A program made the translations under genes and the position numbers. Shown one piece after another: positions 22,379-63,963 of a stretch of 64,000 nt of DNA (position 1 is the stretch's first letter; each line of letters opens with the position of its first letter). Source of the stretch: an uncultured Bacilli bacterium (GTDB lineage Bacteria > Bacillota_I > Bacilli_A > RFN20 > CAG-449); NCBI GenBank assembly GCA_944332075.1, contig CALVJL010000001.1, positions 3,787 to 67,786 on the forward strand. The letters are read 5' to 3'. The notes under the pieces were generated by a model, which saw only the letters and a program-made list of their open reading frames with translations, searched no databases and was not told where the DNA came from.

Positions 22379-23561
22379 TTCTTACAACCACATTAATACC
22401 TTTATCAAAAGAATTGCTCTCAAAAGAACACTTTTCTGATAGAGAGACTTCTTGTAAATTATTATTTTGGAAAGCATAAGCATAGATATATTCTAGCGAA
22501 TCAGGCAATATGAGATTGCCTGAAATTTTATTATTATAAAAAGCTTTACGAGAAATTAATCTTAAAGAAGATTCATCTGTAAAAGAAATAGCGGATACTT
22601 GGTTATTTTCAAAAGCTGATGAGCGAATTTCTTCTAGTGAAGAATCAAAACTCAAAGAAGAAATTTTATCGTTCATAAAAGCTTGTGAACCAATTATTTT
22701 TACGTTAGAAACTGAAAGAGAAGAAAGATTATCGCAGTCTTTGAAAGCCCCTAAGCCAATTTCCGAAATATTCGAAAGAGACAGTGTTTCTAATTTTTTA
22801 TTATTATTAAAAGCGTGACTAGATATTTCTTTACCAGACAATGACAATGAAGTAAAACCGCAGTTTTCAAAAGCATAAGAAGCAATATTTGTAATATAGT
22901 CAAAATTTAATTCACTTAAATTCTCACAGTTTTTAAATGCATAGGAATCAATCGCGGTGACACTTGATCCCAAAGTCACCTTTTTAAGCGAGGTACATTT
23001 TTCAAAAGCTGAACCGGAAATATTAGTAATTGAACCAGAAATATTCACTTCTTCTAAATGCTGATTATTCCAAAAACAATCAATGCCCATCGACTGTAAA
23101 TTAGTGAAATTAAATGATTTGATTGCAGTTCCTTCAAAAACACCAGTTAATAAAGTTTTGACCTCTTCCCCACCGGTATACAAGACTAAATTTTGACAGT
23201 TAGAAAAGCAGTGATCTGGAAGGACTTCAATACTATCAGACATAATGACTGATTCTAGTTTTTTGCAGTCTCGAAAAGCATCATAACCAATGATTGTCAC
23301 TGTATCAGGTATCGTAACTTCTTTTAAATAATTATTTCCTTTAAAAGCATTTTCCTGAATCGATACAACAGTGTAAACATTGTTATCAACAGTTATAGTT
23401 TCTGGAATATTTAAAACCGGGTAATTATACCCTGAAGAAACGACCATCGCTGTCATATCACCATTATTTAACACATAATTAATTGTGTTGTTATTTTGTC
23501 CGCATCCCATTAAAGACAAAGACAAAACGCAAACTGAAAATTTAGCAATTTTTGAATTCAT
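22362..23561 (-). CDS. BspA-type leucine-rich-repeat surface lipoprotein
   Basis: 399 aa. Lipobox LSLMGCGQ. About 14 tandem ~23-aa repeats of the LRR_5/BspA type (xxIxxxAFxxCxxLxxVxIPxSV). Confidence 0.75.
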   Translation of the reverse strand: MNSKIAKFSVCVLSLSLMGCGQNNNTINYVLNNGDMTAMVVSSGYNYPVLNIPETITVDNNVYTVVSIQENAFKGNNYLKEVTIPDTVTIIGYDAFRDCKKLESVIMSDSIEVLPDHCFSNCQNLVLYTGGEEVKTLLTGVFEGTAIKSFNFTNLQSMGIDCFWNNQHLEEVNISGSITNISGSAFEKCTSLKKVTLGSSVTAIDSYAFKNCENLSELNFDYITNIASYAFENCGFTSLSLSGKEISSHAFNNNKKLETLSLSNISEIGLGAFKDCDNLSSLSVSNVKIIGSQAFMNDKISSLSFDSSLEEIRSSAFENNQVSAISFTDESSLRLISRKAFYNNKISGNLILPDSLEYIYAYAFQNNNLQEVSLSEKCSFESNSFDKGINVVVRNENNQ

Positions 23562-49350: not shown

Positions 49351-50661
49351 TTATAATGAGAAATGGAATACAGCGTTTTCGTTATCAAATTGTTCGTTGC
49401 TGACCCAAGTAACTGTTTTATCAGTCAAATTATACAATGCTGACCAAACAGTGCATCCATTGCCATCTGTTTTTCCGTTAACAATGTCCCAATGTCTTCT
49501 TCCAACTTCTCTTAAAATAGATAATGCTTCTGCTTCATCTTTAACAACACCTTGAGTATTTGTGCCATCTGGATTAATCATTTCTTGAATTCGGTCATAA
49601 CGATCTTTTCCTTGTGCTAATAATCTATCTGTTTCTTCTGAATAATAGTCTGGTGTTACTAAGAAATTAGTAACGTATTGGAAATTATCATTAGCTTCTT
49701 TTTCACCGACTTCACTATCAGAATCATTATAATAAACTCTTAATTCTCTAGCAGAACCATCATTATCATTATTTGATTTTGGATTATCAGGAGTGACCCA
49801 TTCCAAAATAGCTGATTTACCGGTTGCATCGGCAATCATATAATGGAATGAAGTATTAGCTGAGTCGTGGAAGTCATATTGTTTTACCATTTCAATTGCT
49901 TCATCGACATTACTTGCGTAATCAAGAACCATTCTCATCATCGTTGTTGAAGTGATATCAGGCTTTTCTGTGTCTTGATTAGTTGATACGACATCGTAGC
50001 CAGCACCATTTTCTTTCTTATTGCCTTGATAAGACATATAAATTCCGCATGCGACACCTTTTTCATTCATGCCATCAATTGGAGCATAAGGTGCTGCAAC
50101 AGTCAATAATTTATCCATTAAGTCAGTGAGTTCAACTCCATCGCTGATTCCTAAGAATTGTAAATCAACGCTAGAAATAGAAGAGTAACGACCATTTCCT
50201 GGATTAGCACGTAAAATTAAGCCAGTGGTTTGAGCAAAATCATAATTTCTTCCAAAAAGATGGTCTCCATCTTCTGTAACACAAGTAAATGATGAGCAAC
50301 CAATATTACTTGTTGGTAAATTAATTTTAAATAATCCTTTTGTGATATTGCCAACTATAAAATCGATTAATTCGCTATCACTTGAAGCACCGCCTTCTTC
50401 TAAATATTTATCAAAATAGAATCCACCTTTAAAATTCATCTCATACACAGGACCAGCTTTAATATCATAATTAGGTTCAGAAATTTTCTTAAGTGACATA
50501 ATAGATGAAATTTCATTACCCCATAAAGCACCAACTGTGATACCTGCAGCAGCAACAATCGCTACAACTGAGCATCCAGCAATAATTAATCCCTTAGCCC
50601 AAGGTTTCATTTTCTTTTTTTCTTTAACTTCAGTTTGATTCATATTTTCGTTTTCTTTCAT
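49351..50661 (-). CDS. membrane-anchored linear amide C-N hydrolase (choloylglycine hydrolase / acid-ceramidase-like Ntn hydrolase) with N-terminal pro-domain
   Basis: 436 aa. Signal-anchor helix (aa 18-45), a ~75-aa region, then SNIGCSSFTCVTEDGDHLFGRNYDF with the nucleophile Cys typical of the CBAH/NAAA family. C-terminal extension beyond the usual ~320-aa core. Confidence 0.65.
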   Translation of the reverse strand: MKENENMNQTEVKEKKKMKPWAKGLIIAGCSVVAIVAAAGITVGALWGNEISSIMSLKKISEPNYDIKAGPVYEMNFKGGFYFDKYLEEGGASSDSELIDFIVGNITKGLFKINLPTSNIGCSSFTCVTEDGDHLFGRNYDFAQTTGLILRANPGNGRYSSISSVDLQFLGISDGVELTDLMDKLLTVAAPYAPIDGMNEKGVACGIYMSYQGNKKENGAGYDVVSTNQDTEKPDITSTTMMRMVLDYASNVDEAIEMVKQYDFHDSANTSFHYMIADATGKSAILEWVTPDNPKSNNDNDGSARELRVYYNDSDSEVGEKEANDNFQYVTNFLVTPDYYSEETDRLLAQGKDRYDRIQEMINPDGTNTQGVVKDEAEALSILREVGRRHWDIVNGKTDGNGCTVWSALYNLTDKTVTWVSNEQFDNENAVFHFSL

Positions 50662-50854: not shown

Positions 50855-50952
50855 TCATTAATTTATATTATATATGCGACTCATTCTTAAATCTGCAAAT
50901 CTCCGATGCTTATTTCAGAGTGAGTTAAGAAAAAAATTGGAGGAATTAAAAA
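50855..50952 (+). promoter_or_regulatory. rpsO promoter and structured 5' leader
   Basis: TTGTCA-17-TATATT near 50846-50875. The leader can fold ACTCATTC...GAGTGAGT around a ~30-nt loop just before the RBS GGAGG. Reminiscent of S15 autoregulatory leaders. Confidence 0.3.
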
Positions 50953-51221
50953 TGGCATTAAGCAAAGAAGTAAAAGCCGAACTCGTCAAACAATTTGGCG
51001 CAAACGAAACCGATACTGGTTCAACAAAGGTTCAAATCGCAATTCTTACAAAGAGAATCGCAGCATTAACTGAACACCTTAAAAATCATGGTCAAGATGC
51101 ACAAACCAGACGTGGATTATCAATTCTTATCGGTAAGAGAAGAGGTTTACTTGACTACTTATCAAGAACCGATTACGAAGGCTACAAAGCTTTAATTAAA
51201 GAACTCGGCATCAGAAAGTAA
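50953..51221 (+). CDS. rpsO: 30S ribosomal protein S15
   Basis: 89 aa from the ATG at 50953 (MALSKEVKAELVKQFG...). GGAGG RBS 9 nt upstream. The ORF-track N-terminal extension is rejected. Confidence 0.95.
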
Positions 51222-51290: not shown

Positions 51291-51938
51291 ATGACAAGTG
51301 CGCGTTTAAGTAATCAAAAAGGTGATATTAAAACAAAGTATTGCGGATATTCTTTTTGGTATTTGATTTTTGGACCATTATACTTAATAGTTAAACTCCG
51401 TTTTATTTTAGCAATTTTTATTTTGATTATTTATTATTATTTTTTGCCGATACCCGGAATGGATTTTATCTCATCTCACATCGCGAATCTTTTTTCTGGT
51501 CAAGCCAAAGAAGCAGTAATTGATTTTTTGATGTTTTTCCGGCAAGACTATATCCGCTGGGGAGGAGTTGCAATAACAATTTTTCTTCAAACATATTTTG
51601 CTTTTTCAATTGAAGGATATTTAGTTAAAAAATTTATAAAAAAGAAAAAATATCTTCCTATCACTGAAAGAGATGCCAGAATATTGATTAAAGCGCATGC
51701 TGCCAACGAATCAATTCTTCTCTGTGATGAGGCTTTTTCGCAAAATATTCCAGCGCAAAACACAAGTCATAAAAAGATTCCTTATTTATTAGATGAGACC
51801 AAAAAAACACGAATGGAAATGATAAAGGAAAGTGAGCTAGCTTTAAGAATTCAAAATTTGGAACGCCTCTATCAACTAGGTCAATTAAATAAGGAAGAAT
51901 TTGAAATTCAAAGAGCAAAGTTATTAAATAAACGATAA
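51291..51938 (+). CDS. DUF2628-like membrane protein with C-terminal SHOCT domain
   Basis: 215 aa. Two or three TM helices with YCGYSFWYLIFGPLYLIVK (DUF2628-like). C-terminal LERLYQLGQLNKEEFEIQRAKLL matches the SHOCT (short C-terminal) oligomerisation motif. Confidence 0.5.
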   Translation: MTSARLSNQKGDIKTKYCGYSFWYLIFGPLYLIVKLRFILAIFILIIYYYFLPIPGMDFISSHIANLFSGQAKEAVIDFLMFFRQDYIRWGGVAITIFLQTYFAFSIEGYLVKKFIKKKKYLPITERDARILIKAHAANESILLCDEAFSQNIPAQNTSHKKIPYLLDETKKTRMEMIKESELALRIQNLERLYQLGQLNKEEFEIQRAKLLNKR

Positions 51939-51948
51939 GGAATTAAAA

Positions 51949-52257
51949 ATGATTGATACAATTGCAAAAATTATAACTGGGGTAGTTTTATTAATTATCA
52001 TATTAGCGTCTTTTATTTTATATAAAAAAATGCGCAAAATTAATGCTTCTGCTTACCTTTATGTAACCGCGACAGTCTCTATTCTCTGCGCATTTGCTTA
52101 TATATCATTTGATAAGACTATATTTTCAGTAAGTCACGATTATGTATTTTATTTTACAGAATTAGGTATATATTTAGGCATTATTGCACTAGGTAACATT
52201 ATAGTTTTGATAGTTAAAAGAATTTTACAAAAGAAAAAAGATAGCTCTAATCAATAG
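51949..52257 (+). CDS. small membrane protein (3 TM helices), hypothetical
   Basis: 102 aa. Hydrophobic segments and a Lys-rich C-terminus. The ATG has an AAGGAA RBS. Confidence 0.4.
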   Translation: MIDTIAKIITGVVLLIIILASFILYKKMRKINASAYLYVTATVSILCAFAYISFDKTIFSVSHDYVFYFTELGIYLGIIALGNIIVLIVKRILQKKKDSSNQ

Positions 52258-53423: not shown

Positions 53424-55610
53424 ATGTCAAAGAAAGTATTTTCGTTAGACTTTGAAGGTAAGAAACTGATCGTTGAAACAGGCGAGATTGCTAAGCAAGC
53501 CGATGGTGCTTGTTTAATCCGTTTGGATGATACCGTAGTTTTATCTACCGCATGCTGTTCAGATGAAGCAAAAGATAGCGACTTCTTCCCATTAACAGTT
53601 GGTTATGAAGAAAAGCTCTATTCTGTCGGCAAAATTCCGGGTTCTTTCTTAAGAAGAGAAGGACGTCCAGGTGAACATGCCACCTTAACTGCACGTTTAA
53701 TCGATCGACCAATTAGACCGATGTTCCCAGAAGGATTCCGTAACGAAGTCCAAATCGTTAACACCGTTATGTCTGTTGATCCAGATGCTACACCAGAAAT
53801 GGCTGCAATGTTTGGTTCATCACTCGCATTAGGTATTTCCGATATTCCTTTTGACGGACCTATCGCTGGAGTATATGTCGGAAGAGTTGATGGAAAATAT
53901 GTCATTAACCCGACAGTTGAACAAAAAGCTAAATCAGATTTGAATTTAGCGGTTGCTGGAACTAAGAAAGCTATTAACATGGTTGAAGCCGGAGCTAATG
54001 AACTCAGTGAAGAAGAAATGCTCGCCGGAATTATGTTCGGCCATGAAGCTATTAAAAAGCTCTGCGCATTCCAAGAAGAAATTATTAAGGAAATCGGCAA
54101 AACTAAACGCGAAATCGTTTTATATTCAATTCCTCAAGATTTAATTGATGCAGTAACTGCTGTTTCAAAAGATAGAATTACTAAATCAGTATCAATCGTC
54201 GATAAGCTTGAAAGACAAGATGCGATTGACGCTATTGAAAAAGAAGTTCTTGAACAATATGAAAATCTCAATTATCCAGATGAAAAGACCAAGAATCTCA
54301 CTTTAAAGCAAGTTAGAGATATCATGGAAGGCTTTGTCAGAGATGAAGTTAGAAGATTAATTACTTATGATAAAGTTAGACCAGATGGAAGAAAAATTGA
54401 TGAAATCCGTCCATTAAACGCTCAAGTTGACTTATTACCTCGTACCCATGGTTCAGCTATGTTTACTAGAGGTCAAACCCAAGTTATTTCTGTTTGTACA
54501 TTAGGCGCTCAATCAGATGAACAAATTATTGATAATTTAAGTGATGAGGAAACAAAACGCTTCATGCATCACTACAACTTCCCACCTTATTCCGTTGGTG
54601 AAATTGGCAGAATGGGCACACCTGGAAGAAGAGAAATCGGTCATGGTGCATTAGGTGAAAGAGCTCTTTCATACGTCATTCCACCATTTGATGAATTCCC
54701 ATATACTATTAGAGTTGTTGCCGAAGTTGTTGAATCAAATGGTTCATCATCGCAAGCATCCATCTGCGCTTCCTGTATGGCTTTAATGGCTGCTGGTGTA
54801 CCTATTAAGAAACCAGTTGTCGGTATTGCAATGGGCTTAATTACTTCTGGTCCAGTTGAAGAAGGTTATCCTTATACTATTTTAACTGATATCCAAGGCC
54901 TTGAAGATCACTTAGGAGATATGGACTTCAAAGTTGCTGGAACTAGAGACGGCATCACCGCTTTACAAATGGATATCAAGATTAAAGGCATCACCGAAGA
55001 AATCTTAAGACAAGCTTTAAATCAAGCACATGGAGCAAGAGAACAAATCATGAAAGTTGTCACTGACTGCATTCCTGCTCCGCGTAAAGAAGTTAGTAAA
55101 TATGCTCCTAAGATGGTTACATTCAATATCGACCCAGATAAGATTAGAGATGTCATCGGTTCTCAAGGAAAAGTTATTAACGAAATTATCGAAAGCTGCG
55201 ACAATGTTAAGATTGATATCAATGATGATGGTAAAGTAATTATCTATCACACCGACAAAGAAGCAATTGAAAAAGCTAAAAAGATGATTCTCGACATTGC
55301 TAGAGTTGCTCACGTCGGAGAGATATTTGATGGAACAGTTGTCAGAATTGAATCATATGGTTGCTTTGTCAATCTCTTCAATAATGTTGATGGTCTCTGC
55401 CATGTTTCAAAATTATCGCATTCAAGAGTCAACCATCCTAAAGATGTCGTCAAAGTCGGTCAAAAATTAAAAGTCATCGTTACCGATATTGATGAAAAAG
55501 GAAGAATTAATCTTTCTCATAAAGAATTTGAACCAAAAATTGTTAAGGAAGAAAAAGAAGAAACCGCTGAAAAAGCTGAAGAAAAAAGCGAAACAAAAGT
55601 TTCTGAATAA
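53424..55610 (+). CDS. pnp: polyribonucleotide nucleotidyltransferase (PNPase)
   Basis: 728 aa. Two RNase PH domains, KH and S1 domains (…[20 protein letters not shown]…). Confidence 0.96.
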
Positions 55611-55736: not shown

Positions 55737-57380
55737 ATGAAAAAATCAATAATGGCATTATCTTTACTATCGCTAATTTCATTATCAGCCTGCGGAGGTC
55801 TTACTTCATCTTCGCAAAACTCAAGTCCAGCACCTTCAACTTCTTCTAGTGCTACATTTACTCTAACTCAGGATACTTTAGATCAATTAAGTCTAGGTTA
55901 TTCATTAGAGACTCTTGTAACAGAAGATGTAAACGGAAAAATTTCTTATTTCTACACAGATTCTTTTCACGATGCTGAATCATATACAGTTAAGGTATAC
56001 GAAGCAAGTCAAAGTACACCTACTAAAGACGTGAATGAAATTTTTGAAACGTATTCTGCTGATGAACAAGGTTATCTCGTCTCAGAAAGAAGAAATCTAA
56101 ATAACGAAAAGAACTTTATTAAGGTATATAATCCATATACATCTGAATATTCTTTGTTTGATGATAACTATTCAAACTTCTTTACTTTTTTAAGCATCGA
56201 TGATTTTGAAAAATCCGGCGATACGTATGTTCTTTCCGATAATGCAAAAGCTGCTGTTTCGCCATACATTATCACTCAACTTTATGGTAATCCTGGTTTT
56301 GAACTTGATTCATTAACAATTGAAGAGAGAAATGGCTCAATCTATTTAGTAACTACACCTAAGCCATTTGTGACTTCATCGACAACCTATAACTATATTT
56401 TTGAAAGTAAAATCGTCGAATTTGGAAATGATATTACTATACCAAAAAGAGCTGAACCATATGCAGAAGTAACTGATGCAAAATTTACCGAAATGATTAC
56501 TTCATTAAAAGGCAAAAATTATAAAATGGTTCAAAAAGATTATCAAGGCAGTCAGTTAGCAGCAACATCAACTTTTATTGTGAATGGTGATTTAACATAC
56601 CGCGAAAACGAATTTGACGGAGTTAGTTATAAGGTTGCCGCTTATAAAGATGGTGATAATTATTACGAAGCAAACAAAGAAGGAACAGAATTCATCAAAG
56701 CGCGTCAAATCACTGCTGAGGAATTCTCAGCTTTATATTCTTCATTTAACATTAGCCGCGCTTGCTTTGATGAAAGCGATGGAATATATACCGTCAAAGA
56801 CGATGTCAACGGTGATACATTTGCTTATTCTATTTTCGCATCACTGGTCAGTGAAATTAACGACTTTACTATTGAAATAAAAGATGGTTCATATATTTTT
56901 ACAAATAAAAATGGAACAAATAAAACCATTGTTGAATTTACTGATATCGGATCAGCAGATGTCGGATACCAAGTTTCTGATGTTAAAGAACCATTAGCAG
57001 AAGTATCTTGGAAAGATATTCTCGACGAATATTCTTTAGCTAATCTCACATCGGTTTTAGGTGAAGAAAAACTCGCTTCTTTCCCAGTTCCAGAAGAATT
57101 TAATCTTGAAGGATGGATGGATTTCAGTGAAGAAGAAGGAATGTCAATGCTCCTTTATATATCACCTGATCCAGTTGCAGATGAAAGCACATTAGCTGCT
57201 TATGAACAAAAATTAATAGCTGCTGGTTATCAAGACATGGGTGAAACTGATCCAAGCGCATATGATGCAAAAGTCTACGCGGATGATTCGACTATTGTTG
57301 AAGTAGCATTAGTTCCAGCTGGAGGATTAGGAAGCGAATTTGATTTCCCAATTCTCATGATTGTCGTACTAGCAATGTAA
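55737..57380 (+). CDS. hypothetical surface lipoprotein (547 aa), no recognisable domain
   Basis: Lipobox LISLSACGG + Ser-rich linker (SSQNSSPAPSTSSSA). The rest is a Tyr/Asp/Thr-rich soluble region. C-terminal hydrophobic stretch FPILMIVVLAM. RBS GAAAGGGGA upstream. Confidence 0.6.
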   Translation: MKKSIMALSLLSLISLSACGGLTSSSQNSSPAPSTSSSATFTLTQDTLDQLSLGYSLETLVTEDVNGKISYFYTDSFHDAESYTVKVYEASQSTPTKDVNEIFETYSADEQGYLVSERRNLNNEKNFIKVYNPYTSEYSLFDDNYSNFFTFLSIDDFEKSGDTYVLSDNAKAAVSPYIITQLYGNPGFELDSLTIEERNGSIYLVTTPKPFVTSSTTYNYIFESKIVEFGNDITIPKRAEPYAEVTDAKFTEMITSLKGKNYKMVQKDYQGSQLAATSTFIVNGDLTYRENEFDGVSYKVAAYKDGDNYYEANKEGTEFIKARQITAEEFSALYSSFNISRACFDESDGIYTVKDDVNGDTFAYSIFASLVSEINDFTIEIKDGSYIFTNKNGTNKTIVEFTDIGSADVGYQVSDVKEPLAEVSWKDILDEYSLANLTSVLGEEKLASFPVPEEFNLEGWMDFSEEEGMSMLLYISPDPVADESTLAAYEQKLIAAGYQDMGETDPSAYDAKVYADDSTIVEVALVPAGGLGSEFDFPILMIVVLAM

Positions 57381-58531: not shown

Positions 58532-61153
58532 ATGCGTAATTTAAAAAGTTATGAAATCCGTAATATGTGGCTAAACTTTTTCAAAAGCAAAGGTCACTAC
58601 ATCGAGCCAAGTGCTAATTTGATTCCGCAAAATGATCCGACCCTTCTTTGGATCAATTCCGGCGTTGCCGCTTTAAAAAAATATTTTGATGGATCTGAAG
58701 TACCTCCATATACAAGAATTACCAACGCTCAAAAGTCAATTAGAACCAACGATATTGAAAACGTTGGTAAAACTGCTCGTCACCACACATTTTTTGAAAT
58801 GCTCGGCAATTTTTCTATCGGAGATTATTTCCGTAATGAAGTTATACCTTGGGCTTTTGAGCTTTTAACTAGTGAAAAATATTTTGGTATTCCACTAGAA
58901 AAACTCTATATTACCTATCACCCAAGCGATAAAGATACTTACAATCTTTGGATTAAGATGGGCGTAATACCTTCTCACTTAGTTCCAAGTGAACATAATT
59001 TCTGGGAAATCGGTGAAGGACCATGTGGACCAAATACTGAAATGTATTATGACCGTGGAGAGAAATATGATCCAGAGCATTTAGGTGAAAAGTTAATTTT
59101 CGAAGATTTGGAAAATGATCGTTACATTGAATTATGGAATATCGTCTTTTCACAATATAATGCTGAAATTGGCAAAAAGAGAGAAGAATACAAAGAACTC
59201 CCTCATAAAAACATTGATACTGGTGCAGGTCTAGAAAGATTATGCTGCATTTTCCAAGATACTGAGACCAATTTTGAAACCGACTTATTCTATCCATATA
59301 TTGAAGAAGTTGCTAAATATGCTTCTCATCCATATGAAGGCGAATATAAAATGGCTTACCGCGTTATCGCTGACCATATTAGAGCATGTACATTTGCTTT
59401 ATCAGATGGAGCTACCTTCTCTAATGAAGGACGTGGATATGTCTTAAGAAGATTACTTAGAAGAGCTTCTAGATATTTAAGAAAACTCGGAATCACAAAA
59501 CCATTCTTATACACATTAGTCCACTTAGTTACTTTAGTTATGGAAGACTACTATCCTGAATTAAAAGATAGCGAAGAAAAAGTTGCTAAGATGATTAAAT
59601 TTGAAGAAGAGAAATTCCAAAAGACCCTTTCTTCAGGCGAAGCAATTTTAAATGAATTCATCTCTGATGCTAAAAAGAATAACTCAACGATGCTAAGCGG
59701 TAAAGAAGTTTTCAAACTTTATGATACCTATGGTTTCCCATTTGAATTAACCAAAGAAATCGCTTCAGAAAATAATCTCGAAGTTGATGAAAAAGGCTTT
59801 GAAGAAGAAATGGAAAAGCAAAAAGAAAGAGCCCGTGCATCTAGAGGAAATCTTCAATCAATGTCTAGCCAGATGATTGATTTAATGAACTTTAAAGAAC
59901 CATCAGAATTTACTTATGATGAAGCTCCATTAAAAGCAAAAGTAATCGGTTTATTCAAAGACGGAGTTAAAGTTTCATCTCTTGATGAAGACGGAGAAGT
60001 TATCTTTGATAAAACCAACTTCTACGCGACAAGTGGCGGACAAGAACACGATGAAGGCGTTATTGAAAACTCAACAACTCGCGCATTAGTTAATAACGTT
60101 ATCAAGTCAGTAAATAAACAACACCTTCATTTCGTCCATGTCGAATATGGTGAAATTAAAGTCGGTGATGAATTCACCTTATCAATTGACACAAAGAGAC
60201 GTGACATGACTAAGAGAAATCACTCTTGCACACACTTATTACAAAAGGCTCTCCAAGTTGTTCTCGGCGATGATGTTCACCAAGAAGGTTCTTATAACTG
60301 CGCTGATTATCTCCGCTTCGACTTCAACTATCAAGGTAAGATATCCGAGCAAATGCTTAATCAAATCGAATTATTAGTTAATCAATATATCGAAGAAGAT
60401 TTACCTTGCAATATTGCTTATTATAGCAAAGAAGAAGCATCCAAACTCAATGCGATGCACTTATTTAACGAAAAATATGGTTCAACGATTAGAGTTGTTT
60501 CCTTCGGTGATGTTTCAAGTGAATTCTGTGCTGGCGCCCATGTTACTTCAAGTAAAGATATCGGTGTCTTCACCATCACAAGCGAACAAGCTATCGCAGC
60601 CGGCATTAGAAGAATTGAAGGAAAAACATCTTTCAAGGCTTATGAAGAATTAAAGAAAAAAGCAATCGCTCTTTCTGAAGCAAGCGATAAATTAAAAGCT
60701 GGATCATTAAGTGACGTCAATAAAAAGATTGATGAATTGTTAAATAAAGAAAGTTCTTTAAGAAAAGAAATCACTGCTTTACAAGAGAAAATTGCTGTCT
60801 ATAAGAGTAAAGAATTAAAAGAAAACTTTATCGATTGCGGTGACCATCATTTATTAGTCTATCGTTTCGATAATATTGATAACAAAGCTTTCATGGCTAC
60901 CTTTGATACCTTAAAGAATGTCCACGATGATTACGTCATTCTCTTAGCTAATGCTAATAATGATAAAATATCCTTTGTCGCTGGTGTTGCTAGCAAATTA
61001 ACTGATAAATACCAAGCAGGAAATATCGTTAAGAAAGCTGCTTCATTAACTAATGGCTCTGGTGGAGGACGTAAAGAAATGGCTCAAGGTGGAGGTAAAG
61101 ATATCTCCAAGCTCGATGAGTGCTTAAAAGTTATCACCGAGGAATTAAAATAA
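58532..61153 (+). CDS. alaS: alanine--tRNA ligase
   Basis: 873 aa. Class II motifs, editing domain with the HxxxH…CxxxH Zn site (HSCTHLL…CAGAH), C-terminal DHHA1 domain. Confidence 0.96.
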   Translation: MRNLKSYEIRNMWLNFFKSKGHYIEPSANLIPQNDPTLLWINSGVAALKKYFDGSEVPPYTRITNAQKSIRTNDIENVGKTARHHTFFEMLGNFSIGDYFRNEVIPWAFELLTSEKYFGIPLEKLYITYHPSDKDTYNLWIKMGVIPSHLVPSEHNFWEIGEGPCGPNTEMYYDRGEKYDPEHLGEKLIFEDLENDRYIELWNIVFSQYNAEIGKKREEYKELPHKNIDTGAGLERLCCIFQDTETNFETDLFYPYIEEVAKYASHPYEGEYKMAYRVIADHIRACTFALSDGATFSNEGRGYVLRRLLRRASRYLRKLGITKPFLYTLVHLVTLVMEDYYPELKDSEEKVAKMIKFEEEKFQKTLSSGEAILNEFISDAKKNNSTMLSGKEVFKLYDTYGFPFELTKEIASENNLEVDEKGFEEEMEKQKERARASRGNLQSMSSQMIDLMNFKEPSEFTYDEAPLKAKVIGLFKDGVKVSSLDEDGEVIFDKTNFYATSGGQEHDEGVIENSTTRALVNNVIKSVNKQHLHFVHVEYGEIKVGDEFTLSIDTKRRDMTKRNHSCTHLLQKALQVVLGDDVHQEGSYNCADYLRFDFNYQGKISEQMLNQIELLVNQYIEEDLPCNIAYYSKEEASKLNAMHLFNEKYGSTIRVVSFGDVSSEFCAGAHVTSSKDIGVFTITSEQAIAAGIRRIEGKTSFKAYEELKKKAIALSEASDKLKAGSLSDVNKKIDELLNKESSLRKEITALQEKIAVYKSKELKENFIDCGDHHLLVYRFDNIDNKAFMATFDTLKNVHDDYVILLANANNDKISFVAGVASKLTDKYQAGNIVKKAASLTNGSGGGRKEMAQGGGKDISKLDECLKVITEELK

Positions 61154-61569
61154 TGAAGTGCCTCGGTTTAGACTTAGGTGAAAAAACCTTAGGAATTGCT
61201 GAATCTGACGAACTCGGAATCATCGCCTCCGGATTAGAAAATTTCCGTTTTGAAGAAAAAGATTATCAAAAAGCTCTTGAAAGAACTTTATATTATATTG
61301 ACCGCGATCACATTAAAGAAGTCGCATTAGGATTGCCTCTTCATATGTCAGGCGAAGAATCTGAGCATTCATTATTGGCCCGCGAATTTAAAAAGATGAT
61401 TGAAAACGAAAGAAAAGATGTTAAAGTAGTCTTAGTTGATGAACGCTGGACTACTAAACAAGCGACACGTTTTCTTCTCGAAGCTGATTTATCTCGCAAA
61501 AAAAGAAAAAAAGTCATTGATAAGATGGCCGCGGTTGTTATACTAGAGACATACTTAAAGATGAGGTAA
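61153..61569 (+). CDS. ruvX: Holliday-junction-resolvase-like pre-16S rRNA nuclease YqgF/RuvX
   Basis: 138 aa from the ATG at 61153, overlapping the alaS stop (TAATG). MKCLGLDLGEKTLGIAESD (catalytic D) and ...VVLVDERWTTKQA. The ORF-track upstream extension is rejected. Confidence 0.85.
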   Translation: MKCLGLDLGEKTLGIAESDELGIIASGLENFRFEEKDYQKALERTLYYIDRDHIKEVALGLPLHMSGEESEHSLLAREFKKMIENERKDVKVVLVDERWTTKQATRFLLEADLSRKKRKKVIDKMAAVVILETYLKMR

Positions 61570-61572
61570 ACT

Positions 61573-61833
61573 ATGGAAAAAGAAGGAAATAAAGTTTATT
61601 TTACCGATGAAAAAGGACAAACAACAGTCCTTAATATCCTCTTTACTTATGACAACAAAGAAAGAAATAAAGAATACGTTTTCTTTTATAGCGAAGAGGA
61701 ACCAGATAATATCATCGTTGGCTATCTCGGAGATAACGGGGAAATTCTTGATATCTACGATGATGAAGAATATGATGAATTAGAAGACGTTCTCGCCCAT
61801 TACGAGAAAGATCAAGAGAAAAAGGAAGGATAA
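61573..61833 (+). CDS. DUF1292 (YrzB-like) protein
   Basis: 86 aa, acidic. Conserved position after yqgF, as in Bacillus alaS-yrzL-yqgF-yrzB. Confidence 0.7.
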   Translation: MEKEGNKVYFTDEKGQTTVLNILFTYDNKERNKEYVFFYSEEEPDNIIVGYLGDNGEILDIYDDEEYDELEDVLAHYEKDQEKKEG

Positions 61834-61835
61834 AT

Positions 61836-62306
61836 ATGTCTAATCAAGAAGAAATCAAATTAACTAAAGAAGGTATTGAAAAGTTCCAACAAGAATTACG
61901 TCACCTTATCGATGTCGAAAGACCAAAGGTTACAAGAGAAATCAAAGAAGCTAAAGAACAAGGCGACTTATCAGAAAACTCTGATTACGATGCCGCGAGA
62001 ACACGTCAAAGCGAAATTGAAGCAAGAATTGCTTATCTTCAAAACGCATTAATTCACGCTACCGAGATTAAAGCTACTGATAGCAGCGTTGTTGGACTTG
62101 GTTCAACTGTCGTCGTCAGAATGCTTGATATTGATGTTGAAGAAACTTATAAAATTGTCGGACCTGCTGAAGCCGATCCAGAAAACGGAAAAATTTCTAA
62201 TGCTTGCGTTTTAGCAACAGCTATCATGGGACATAAGGTTGGCGAACGCGTTCACGTTAAAGCTAGTGAACCTTACGATGTCGAAATCGTAAAAATCGGT
62301 AAGTAA
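61836..62306 (+). CDS. greA: transcription elongation factor GreA
   Basis: 156 aa. N-terminal coiled coil with the acidic tip (...GDLSENSDYDAAR...) and C-terminal FKBP-like domain. Confidence 0.93.
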   Translation: MSNQEEIKLTKEGIEKFQQELRHLIDVERPKVTREIKEAKEQGDLSENSDYDAARTRQSEIEARIAYLQNALIHATEIKATDSSVVGLGSTVVVRMLDIDVEETYKIVGPAEADPENGKISNACVLATAIMGHKVGERVHVKASEPYDVEIVKIGK

Positions 62307-62311
62307 TTAAG

Positions 62312-62343
62312 TAAATAAAAAACGGGCAATACCCGTTTTTTTA
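62312..62343. terminator. bidirectional terminator between greA and ribF
   Basis: aaataaaaaacgggcaatacccgttttttt. Confidence 0.8.
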
Positions 62344-63963
62344 ATGCACAGATTTTAACTTCTTTTGAAAGTATTCTAATGTTTCGCTAATAAGAGATAC
62401 TTCATCCGTGACATAGTCTTCATATTTTTTGACACCGATAAGATAATAATTGTTGATGACATCAGAGAGTTTAGCTAACGACGCATATGGTAATGTATGA
62501 ATAAATTCATGTGTTAATGAGACATCGTTAAGGAAAGCGTTAATTAGATCTTCTTTACCAAGATTACCTTTTTCATATTCTTTATGCACACTTTCGATTA
62601 ATCTTAAACGAGTTAAATCAATCTTTTCTCTTTCTTCATCAAAGAAAATCATCTTATCAAAGAAATCATGGTCATAAAGCGAAATAGCAAAGATTTTGCT
62701 CTCGTTAACCATCAATGAGTAGCCGTGCAGAGAAAGATAGACACCTTCAAGTGAGGTCTTAATTAATGTACGATCAATTTTTTTTGCATCATCAAGACTC
62801 ATTCCGTTACGAATTCCGTTAAATAAAGCAAAATCAGAGGAAAAATAATCGATTTCCATTAATTCATCAACTTCCGAAAATAACAGATAAGCATCGTCTA
62901 ATTTTAAAAGCTTAGTCACTTCATCGCATTCATAGGTTGGACCTTGTTTTAACAAATCTTTTTCTGTTTTACTAAATTTAACTAAAATTTCAGATGCTTT
63001 CTGTCTAAAATGATACTCTTTAACTCCAAGATATGGAATTAAATATTCATTGCAGTCATAAAAGCGTTTTAAATCATTTTTGATGTGTTCTTCATCTAAA
63101 TCTAATTGCTTTTTTAAATCATCAACTGAAGCAAATTTCTTCTCATCGCGAATAAAACTGATAAATGAAACTTCAATTTCTTTGTTATAAATATTTCCAT
63201 TAAAATCAAAGAGATTAACTTCTAAAATTGGAGTTTGAAGTTCATTGATAGTTGGATGCACGCCAATATTTGCCATTCCCATATAATAACGATCATCAAC
63301 TCTAACTAAGACGCTATAAACGCCGAAACGCGGAATGACATAATTACCCATCTCGACATTTGCGGTTGGATAAAGAGAAACAGATCCGACGTGGAATCCC
63401 TTTTCAACTTCGCCACGTATCACATAAAACCGCGATAATAAACTATTCGCATGGTCAATCTCGCCGTTTTCAATATATTTTATTATTTCTCGTGTTGAAA
63501 TTTTTTTCTCACCATCAAGAATCTCTTTAACTTCAACAACTTGATAACGACCTCTGGATAATTTTGCAAGAAGTTCATTGTTACCTTGAGCTTGATAGCC
63601 AAATGAGTAATCCTTTCCGACTATTAATTCTTTAGGATTAAGTTTCATTAAAAGTTCTTCAACAAAATCATCAGAGGAAAGATGTTTTATCTCTTCAGTA
63701 AATTTTAAGACAATTAAATATTCTACGCCTAAGCGTTCAAGAATATTTTTCTTATCTTCGAGGGTTAAAATATTTTTTTTGTTTTTTAATCCGATATCAC
63801 TAGAGAATTCTAAAGTTAAAACAGCTGAATGATATTTAGATTTTAATGCGCGTTTAATTAGTTCTAGGTGTCCTAAATGCAAACCATCAAAATACCCTAA
63901 ACATAGAGATAATTCGTCTTTTATTTTTTTTATATTATCAAGTGAAATATCAATTACTTCCAT
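62341..63963 (-). CDS. ribF: bifunctional riboflavin kinase/FMN adenylyltransferase (RibF) fused to a ~240-aa C-terminal extension of unknown function
   Basis: 540 aa. Residues 1-~300 carry the FAD synthetase (…LGYFDGLHLGHLELI…) and riboflavin kinase (…RGEVEKGFHVG…PTANV…GVHPT…) domains. Residues ~300-540 have no recognisable motif. Confidence 0.85.
   Translation of the reverse strand: MEVIDISLDNIKKIKDELSLCLGYFDGLHLGHLELIKRALKSKYHSAVLTLEFSSDIGLKNKKNILTLEDKKNILERLGVEYLIVLKFTEEIKHLSSDDFVEELLMKLNPKELIVGKDYSFGYQAQGNNELLAKLSRGRYQVVEVKEILDGEKKISTREIIKYIENGEIDHANSLLSRFYVIRGEVEKGFHVGSVSLYPTANVEMGNYVIPRFGVYSVLVRVDDRYYMGMANIGVHPTINELQTPILEVNLFDFNGNIYNKEIEVSFISFIRDEKKFASVDDLKKQLDLDEEHIKNDLKRFYDCNEYLIPYLGVKEYHFRQKASEILVKFSKTEKDLLKQGPTYECDEVTKLLKLDDAYLLFSEVDELMEIDYFSSDFALFNGIRNGMSLDDAKKIDRTLIKTSLEGVYLSLHGYSLMVNESKIFAISLYDHDFFDKMIFFDEEREKIDLTRLRLIESVHKEYEKGNLGKEDLINAFLNDVSLTHEFIHTLPYASLAKLSDVINNYYLIGVKKYEDYVTDEVSLISETLEYFQKKLKSVH

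Follow-up and report, generated by a model that had tools for sequence, protein, structure and literature searches.

Canonical bacterial RibF/RibC proteins, such as those of Thermotoga maritima (1mrz) and Corynebacterium ammoniagenes (2x0k), consist of an FMN adenylyltransferase (FMNAT) and a riboflavin kinase (RFK) module and end at approximately 290 to 340 amino acids. Fusions of a flavokinase or a FAD synthase (FADS) to an accessory domain are known in principle. Human FADS carries a molybdopterin-binding-like domain, and in plants FADS forms a fusion with a FAD pyrophosphatase that is inactivated (PMC9678776). These eukaryotic fusions share a general design with the protein described here (RibF-long), namely a FAD-forming enzyme with an accessory domain that is regulatory or chaperone-like, whereas their catalytic part belongs to the PAPS-reductase-like family and their accessory fold is a different one. 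No relationship to RibF-long was seen in sequence or structure.

The best-known riboflavin kinases with a regulatory extension are RibR of B. subtilis, in which a flavokinase is joined to an FMN-riboswitch-binding part (PMC12542839), and the archaeal RbkR, in which the kinase is combined with a DNA-binding domain (PMC5397151). The underlying concept, a flavokinase bearing an additional non-catalytic domain through which flavin metabolism is linked with regulation, is the same (PMC12542839, PMC5397151). However, the extensions of RibR and RbkR bind RNA or DNA, whereas that of RibF-long is acidic, differs in fold and is carried by a complete bifunctional RibF, with no evident homology. The module described below is lacking in RibR, RbkR and plant FADS, and a literature search on C-terminal extensions of RibF revealed nothing comparable.

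The RibF enzyme and its in-frame extension

The gene was analyzed within the window, which is the whole 64-kb stretch of DNA. According to the ORF listing, the ATG-initiated frame of RibF-long is uninterrupted over its entire length. The following features were identified in this region:

62341..63963, minus strand: complete ribF-long ORF of 540 aa, with the stop codon at 62341-62343; 99% identical to P0001, which also has 540 aa
63493..63924, minus strand: FMN adenylyltransferase module (FAD_syn), residues 14-157 (Pfam PF06574, E 1.4e-31)
63076..63435, minus strand: riboflavin kinase module (Flavokinase), residues 177-296 (Pfam PF01687, E 2.3e-35)
62317..62341, minus strand: terminator-like hairpin AAAAAACGGG-TAT-TGCCCGTTTTTT, which starts at the stop codon (-12.8 kcal/mol, z -3.1)

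The same FMNAT and RFK modules with all signature motifs are found as in the canonical proteins, and the usual truB-ribF operon position is also common to both. The FAD_syn module contains the signatures GYFDGLHLGH (residues 23-32) and STR (156-158), followed in the Flavokinase module by PTAN (199-202), GVY (214-216), LEV (247-249) and RDEKKF (272-277); the peptide SFISFIRDEKKFASVDDLKKQLD corresponds to residues 266-288. As in TIGR00083 and PRK05627, there is an N-terminal FAD_syn domain with a nucleotidyltransferase motif of the (H/T)xGH type and, on its C-terminal side, a riboflavin kinase domain that contains both PTAN and the catalytic Glu. In the NCBIfam search, the whole protein scored above the cut-offs of the equivalogs NF004162 (248.3 bits, cut-off 241) and TIGR00083 (234.7 bits, cut-off 184.35). 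By all RibF criteria that can be tested on a sequence, residues 1 to approximately 300 are a complete bifunctional riboflavin kinase/FMN adenylyltransferase, and judging from its signatures this part looks fully functional.

The RibF equivalog matches of NCBIfam stop at approximately residue 298, and the T. maritima structure 1mrz could be aligned as far as residue 297 in the PDB sequence search. A previous interpretation from the DNA letters (the sequence-only reading) had described a single 540-aa ORF with about 240 in-frame residues past the riboflavin kinase domain, at positions 62341-63060. This is in agreement with the boundaries of the ORF and of the Pfam, NCBIfam and 1mrz matches. The proposed span, which was given with no strand, is essentially that of residues ~297-540 (window 62344-63075) together with the stop codon of this minus-strand gene. 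The additional ~240 residues, which canonical RibF/RibC proteins do not have, correspond to two extra predicted folded domains.

With a sequence from a MAG, it is an a priori concern that two genes were joined by a frameshift, an overlooked stop or a chimeric assembly. In the full-length search, P0001 (540 aa) was 99% identical, and P0002 (528 aa) was 47% identical and aligned through residue ~490. The 90% cluster of P0001 comprises 57 distinct sequences, with a length of 540 aa in 14 of the 15 listed members, which come from NCBI, ENA and Logan assemblies; in the P0002 cluster (28 distinct sequences) 14 of 15 listed members have 528 aa. Three more divergent lineages carry the in-frame fusion, namely P0122 (544 aa), P0124 (534 aa) and P0125 (537 aa). 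In all four further lineages the frame is preserved at an overall identity of 36-47%, and no fission was found. Since the fusion is replicated in both clusters and in three more lineages, a frameshift or missed stop is excluded, and the ORF continuity assumed by the sequence-only reading was confirmed in independent assemblies with no sign of a sequencing error. No observation in favor of an artefact of any of these kinds was found, and its probability is regarded as negligible.

The same conclusion is reached from the substitution pattern. For five strain-level DNA copies (window, L009, L013-L015), dN/dS was calculated according to Nei-Gojobori and ranged from 0.05 to 0.15 in the extension vs. 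0.03 to 0.14 in the RibF part, with low values across the junction and the tail. The conserved motifs of the extension occur solely in the RibF reading frame, which likewise speaks against an artefact. The hairpin at 62317..62341 is flanked on both sides by A and T runs and may be a bidirectional terminator common to ribF and the convergent greA. No promoter-like site was detected on the minus strand within the RibF ORF. The low dN/dS of the extension, the terminator at the stop codon and the lack of an internal promoter-like site indicate that the extension is translated within RibF and is under purifying selection.

Distribution of the extension and gene neighborhood

For the census, the extension alone was used as single query in an exhaustive phmmer search (HMMER) of 1.84 billion 50%-cluster representatives. 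Five matches were obtained. One is a fragment of this protein, and the other four are proteins of 450-544 aa. The match begins at approximately residue 300 in these proteins, except for one that is truncated at the N-terminus, where it begins at 207. Among the representatives searched, the extension is confined to five 50%-identity clusters, all of them RibF fusions. A free-standing extension was not found among the 1.84 billion representatives, in a single-sequence HMMER search that could miss remote homologues. With a word-indexed homology search, neither the extension alone nor the six-sequence profile gave matches. This result reflects a blind spot for C-terminal sub-sequences, since the database of this tool holds both P0001 and P0002. 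The single-sequence locus search of genome contigs resulted in CALVKD010000070.1, from a MAG of an 'uncultured Bacilli bacterium', as the sole match.

In an NJ tree calculated from the RibF module only, the five long forms are monophyletic, and their sister group consists of RibFs of ~297-310 aa (P0003-P0011) that are ~52% identical. Together with the census, this bears out the view that the fusion is genuine and the domain lineage-specific. At the loci of the short-form sisters, an unrelated convergent gene is located 12-42 bp downstream of ribF or overlaps with it. The extension profile had no match in the six-frame translations of these loci or elsewhere in the window. The possibility of a split gene was rejected, as short-form RibFs end at ~297 aa next to the unrelated convergent gene and the profile matched no frame of their loci; the separate gene in relatives considered by the sequence-only reading was not found there or in the census, in which the extension is always fused to RibF. 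Searches of phages and plasmids revealed no relatives of the extension, and a mobile-element origin is without support. The simplest history is a single gain of the extension in the ancestor of one small Bacilli clade that is uncultured and has a low GC content.

Other long RibFs were also identified. P0086 (665 aa) is a RibF with a GT2 (family-2) glycosyltransferase domain, and P0102 (662 aa) has a Pro/Glu-rich tail of ~360 aa with no credible Pfam match. Both C-terminal additions are unrelated to the extension analyzed here, and neither protein was matched by the extension query. Since such proteins exist, additions to the C-terminus of RibF occur sporadically and are not without precedent.

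In four long-form lineages, truB-ribF is followed by a convergent greA, a gene of 84-86 aa, ruvX and alaS. The genes of interest are located in the window as follows:

50874-51221, plus strand: rpsO
53424-55610, plus strand: pnp
58532-62306, plus strand: alaS, ruvX, the 86-aa gene and greA

The 86-aa ORF between ruvX and greA (61573-61833, plus strand) is acidic and has no Pfam match; a counterpart of 84-85 aa occupies the same position at L001, L010 and L011. Three further plus-strand ORFs were without a Pfam match at E<=1e-3, namely 55737-57380 (547 aa), 51291-51938 (215 aa) and 51949-52257 (102 aa).

In B. subtilis, rpsO and pnp follow immediately after truB-ribC on the same strand. Here, they are located 7-11 kb from ribF and in the opposite orientation. 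The displacement and reversal point to an inversion with a breakpoint adjoining the 3' end of ribF, which is the site of the extension. At L001, pnp likewise lies beyond alaS.

At L014 (2145-2623) and L015 (2145-2623), both of the same 90% cluster, greA is not located downstream of the long ribF, which is followed there by an ORF of 69-76 aa and then by a giant protein (1586-1949 aa) of the GH3 family. This replacement of greA characterizes the region just 3' of ribF as a strain-variable junction.

The window as a whole is ordinary low-GC housekeeping DNA with genes for the F-ATPase, a T-box-controlled IleRS, UvrC, MutS2, the pst operon, PNPase and AlaRS. The T-box leader (21063-21268, minus strand, 107 bits) precedes the ORF of a class-I tRNA synthetase (18285-21032, minus strand) that is likely IleRS, and a single tRNA gene was found at 3705-3777 (minus strand). 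A BspA-type leucine-rich-repeat protein, a GH43-like protein and a choloylglycine-hydrolase/AAT-family protein are encoded at 22362-23561, 21314-22378 and 49351-50661, all on the minus strand. These proteins suggest that this Bacilli lineage may have a host- or gut-associated lifestyle.

Sequence properties and predicted structure of the extension

No match in Pfam, NCBIfam or the PDB sequences was obtained with residues ~297-540, either as single sequence or as a profile, and six extension sequences gave no Pfam family even at E<=10. Matches to Pox_polyA_pol_N, Ferritin and a designed protein in these searches were rated as noise. By these searches, the extension belongs to no described sequence family. 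The earlier impression that it contains no recognisable motif was therefore correct, and the common RibF-associated domain that might have explained it was not found in Pfam or NCBIfam.

The pI of the extension is 4.98 (5.15 in the helical part), with 18.4% D+E and 13.1% F+W+Y, vs. 5.50, 16.2% and 9.1% in the RibF part. Its description as acidic and aromatic holds in direction, the differences being modest.

Structure prediction for the extension with AlphaFold2, based on a six-sequence alignment, resulted in two domains with a mean pLDDT of 91.0 and a pTM of 0.82:

62671..63048, minus strand: predicted extension domain 1, residues ~306-431, alpha/beta with a yfeY-like/BLIP-like fold
62347..62640, minus strand: predicted extension domain 2, residues ~442-539, six-helix bundle

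In the numbering of the extension, the alpha/beta domain covers residues ~10-135, with the order beta-beta-alpha and then three strands occurring twice, and the six helices cover residues ~146-241. A sequence repeat inside domain 1 was not significant (hhalign 6%), although the pattern of secondary structure repeats. Conserved motifs of domain 1 are IPF.GV..Y.F, GP[ST][FY]E.D, L.EID and NGI..GMS..DA.K.DP.L.KTD..VY.S..GY.L, and several of its polar residues are invariant, namely D51, E74, D101, T107, S115 and Y119 (extension numbering). Domain 2 is poorly conserved, with 15-29% identity between clusters, and is evolving fast. In the model of full-length RibF (pTM 0.77), the last RFK helix (residues 280-302) continues into domain 1, which suggests that the extension is held on RibF in a defined and not a floppy arrangement.

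The best fold matches of domain 1 were YfeY/DUF1131 (2qzb), CAP_assoc_N (4ifa, 4h0a), DUF4309 (YjgB, 4ygt) and the immunity protein TsiN (9j9w). The top Foldseek match of the extension was YfeY (E 1e-3, probability 1.00), and the match in a viral fold library was 'CAP-associated protein'. The fold matches all fall into the yfeY-like group of ECOD. This X-group comprises DUF1131, DUF4309 and CAP_assoc_N; it was linked to the BLIP-like group and to the PepSY clan of Pfam, and was incorporated in the homologous group of cystatin/monellin (PMC11836899). The yfeY-like/BLIP-like fold group corresponds to the ECOD X-groups 6043 and 809 and the PepSY clan CL0320.

In its predicted structure, domain 1 shares the three-dimensional fold of the yfeY-like group. 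In contrast to this likeness in fold, no sequence homology was detectable: the HMMs of the yfeY-like families (DUF1131 PF06572, DUF4309 PF14172, CAP_assoc_N PF14505) had no match in the six extensions at E<=10, and the extension profile aligned with E. coli YfeY at a probability of 7% in hhalign. In addition, most members of the yfeY-like/BLIP-like group are secreted proteins, lipoproteins or free-standing immunity proteins, whereas the extension is located in the cytoplasm as part of an enzyme.

Within the BLIP-like group, BLIP and the PepSY-like families are enzyme inhibitors (PMC11836899), and TsiN neutralises its DNase partner, the active site of which is sterically covered (PMC12574953). 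As modelled, domain 1 has a non-catalytic type of fold that is often protein-binding or enzyme-inhibiting, and domain 2 is predicted to be a generic helical bundle.

Possible function of the module

We tentatively consider the extension to be a non-catalytic protein-interaction or regulatory appendage on RibF, at a probability that comes close to one half without reaching it. This reading is favored because the enzyme is intact, the module is non-catalytic by the available tests and the characterised members of the fold class bind proteins. The intact catalytic motifs, the five in-frame lineages, the selection on the extension, its invariable attachment to RibF in the census, the monophyly and shared synteny of the long forms, the confident AlphaFold2 model and the defined arrangement predicted for the full-length protein all count for it. 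The functional argument is drawn from fold analogy, since the extension shows no sequence homology to any yfeY-like/BLIP-like family. Against the reading, many members of the fold class (YfeY, YjgB, CAP_assoc_N) are uncharacterised themselves and extracytoplasmic, the helical domain evolves fast, and no partner gene is evident in the neighborhood, where a search for a flavin transporter, a riboswitch, a flavoprotein or a toxin partner revealed housekeeping genes only.

For such an appendage, the two-domain module would have been gained once at the C-terminus of RibF, in the ancestor of the clade, and would have been kept by purifying selection. BLIP, the PepSY-like inhibitors and TsiN act by binding proteins, often by blocking the active site of an enzyme, and the module may do likewise. 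It could act in cis or between subunits, on the RFK and FMNAT sites of RibF itself or on its oligomerisation. Alternatively, it could dock RibF onto a partner, e.g., an apo-flavoprotein client. That the module is a built-in regulator which gates the active sites of RibF by an autoinhibition relieved by a signal, or which passes freshly made FAD straight on to specific apo-flavoproteins, is a more specific proposal and a rather improbable one. If true, RibF-long would be the first RibF from bacteria to have its own 'FAD chaperone' or inhibitor domain, and also the first case in which the yfeY-like fold is used in the cytoplasm as part of an enzyme.

The sequence-only reading had proposed a flavin-related partner activity for the fused part, such as an FMN hydrolase or a flavin-trafficking protein. 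This is not supported by the results, since the extension has no sequence match to families of the HAD, Nudix, ApbE/Ftp or MoCF type and its predicted fold is non-catalytic. Another of its suggestions, a regulatory module, is compatible with the favored appendage and is put forward here by analogy of fold.

The extension could also be an unrelated two-domain protein, e.g., of an immunity- or inhibitor-like kind, which became attached to ribF at its 3' end when a rearrangement parted this gene from rpsO-pnp, and which has kept its own non-flavin function. The fold class is typical for immunity or inhibitor proteins, a breakpoint of the rearrangement is located at the 3' terminus of ribF with rpsO and pnp inverted 7-11 kb away, and the downstream neighbors vary between strains, as at L014 and L015. 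Moreover, purifying selection shows that there is some function, but not that this function is flavin-related. However, neither the census nor phages or plasmids contain a stand-alone homologue, the fusion is unbroken down to ~36% identity, and a continuous helix and a compact arrangement are predicted in the full-length model. An independent passenger of this kind is considered unlikely, with a chance of being correct that should still be kept in mind.

Binding of a small molecule was also taken into account, in which case the extension would bind a flavin or a nucleotide, either as an allosteric sensor or as a 'chaperone' site holding FAD. Flavin enzymes with regulatory or accessory domains provide precedents (plant FADS-pyrophosphatase, PMC9678776), and the invariant polar residues of domain 1 listed above count for this reading. 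The fold matches, however, are protein-binding scaffolds and not known binders of flavins or nucleotides, and Pfam searches detected no Rossmann, flavodoxin, Nudix or HAD signature, which makes such a function doubtful. Regulation through nucleic acids would place the protein beside B. subtilis RibR and archaeal RbkR as the best-known riboflavin kinases with a regulatory extension (PMC12542839, PMC5397151). Neither a basic RNA-binding part nor a wHTH extension of the RibR/RbkR type was found, the searches gave neither an HTH nor an RNA-binding family or fold, and the 64-kb window contains no FMN riboswitch. The acidic pI of 4.98 (5.15 in the helical part) also argues against nucleic-acid binding, and a nucleic-acid-binding regulator is very improbable.

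The C-terminal module of RibF-long is real, selected, structurally interpretable and narrowly distributed, and is of moderate interest. Its practical reach is limited to a handful of uncultured Bacilli lineages that are probably gut- or host-associated. RibF, an essential enzyme of nearly all bacteria, has been proposed as an antibacterial target, and in bacteria both the regulation of FAD synthesis and the delivery of FAD to client proteins are poorly understood. A RibF with a strongly selected module of a predicted protein-binding type could be a natural handle on the regulation or delivery of FAD. For the largely uncharacterised yfeY-like/DUF4309 fold group, RibF-long would give the first functional context inside the cytoplasm.
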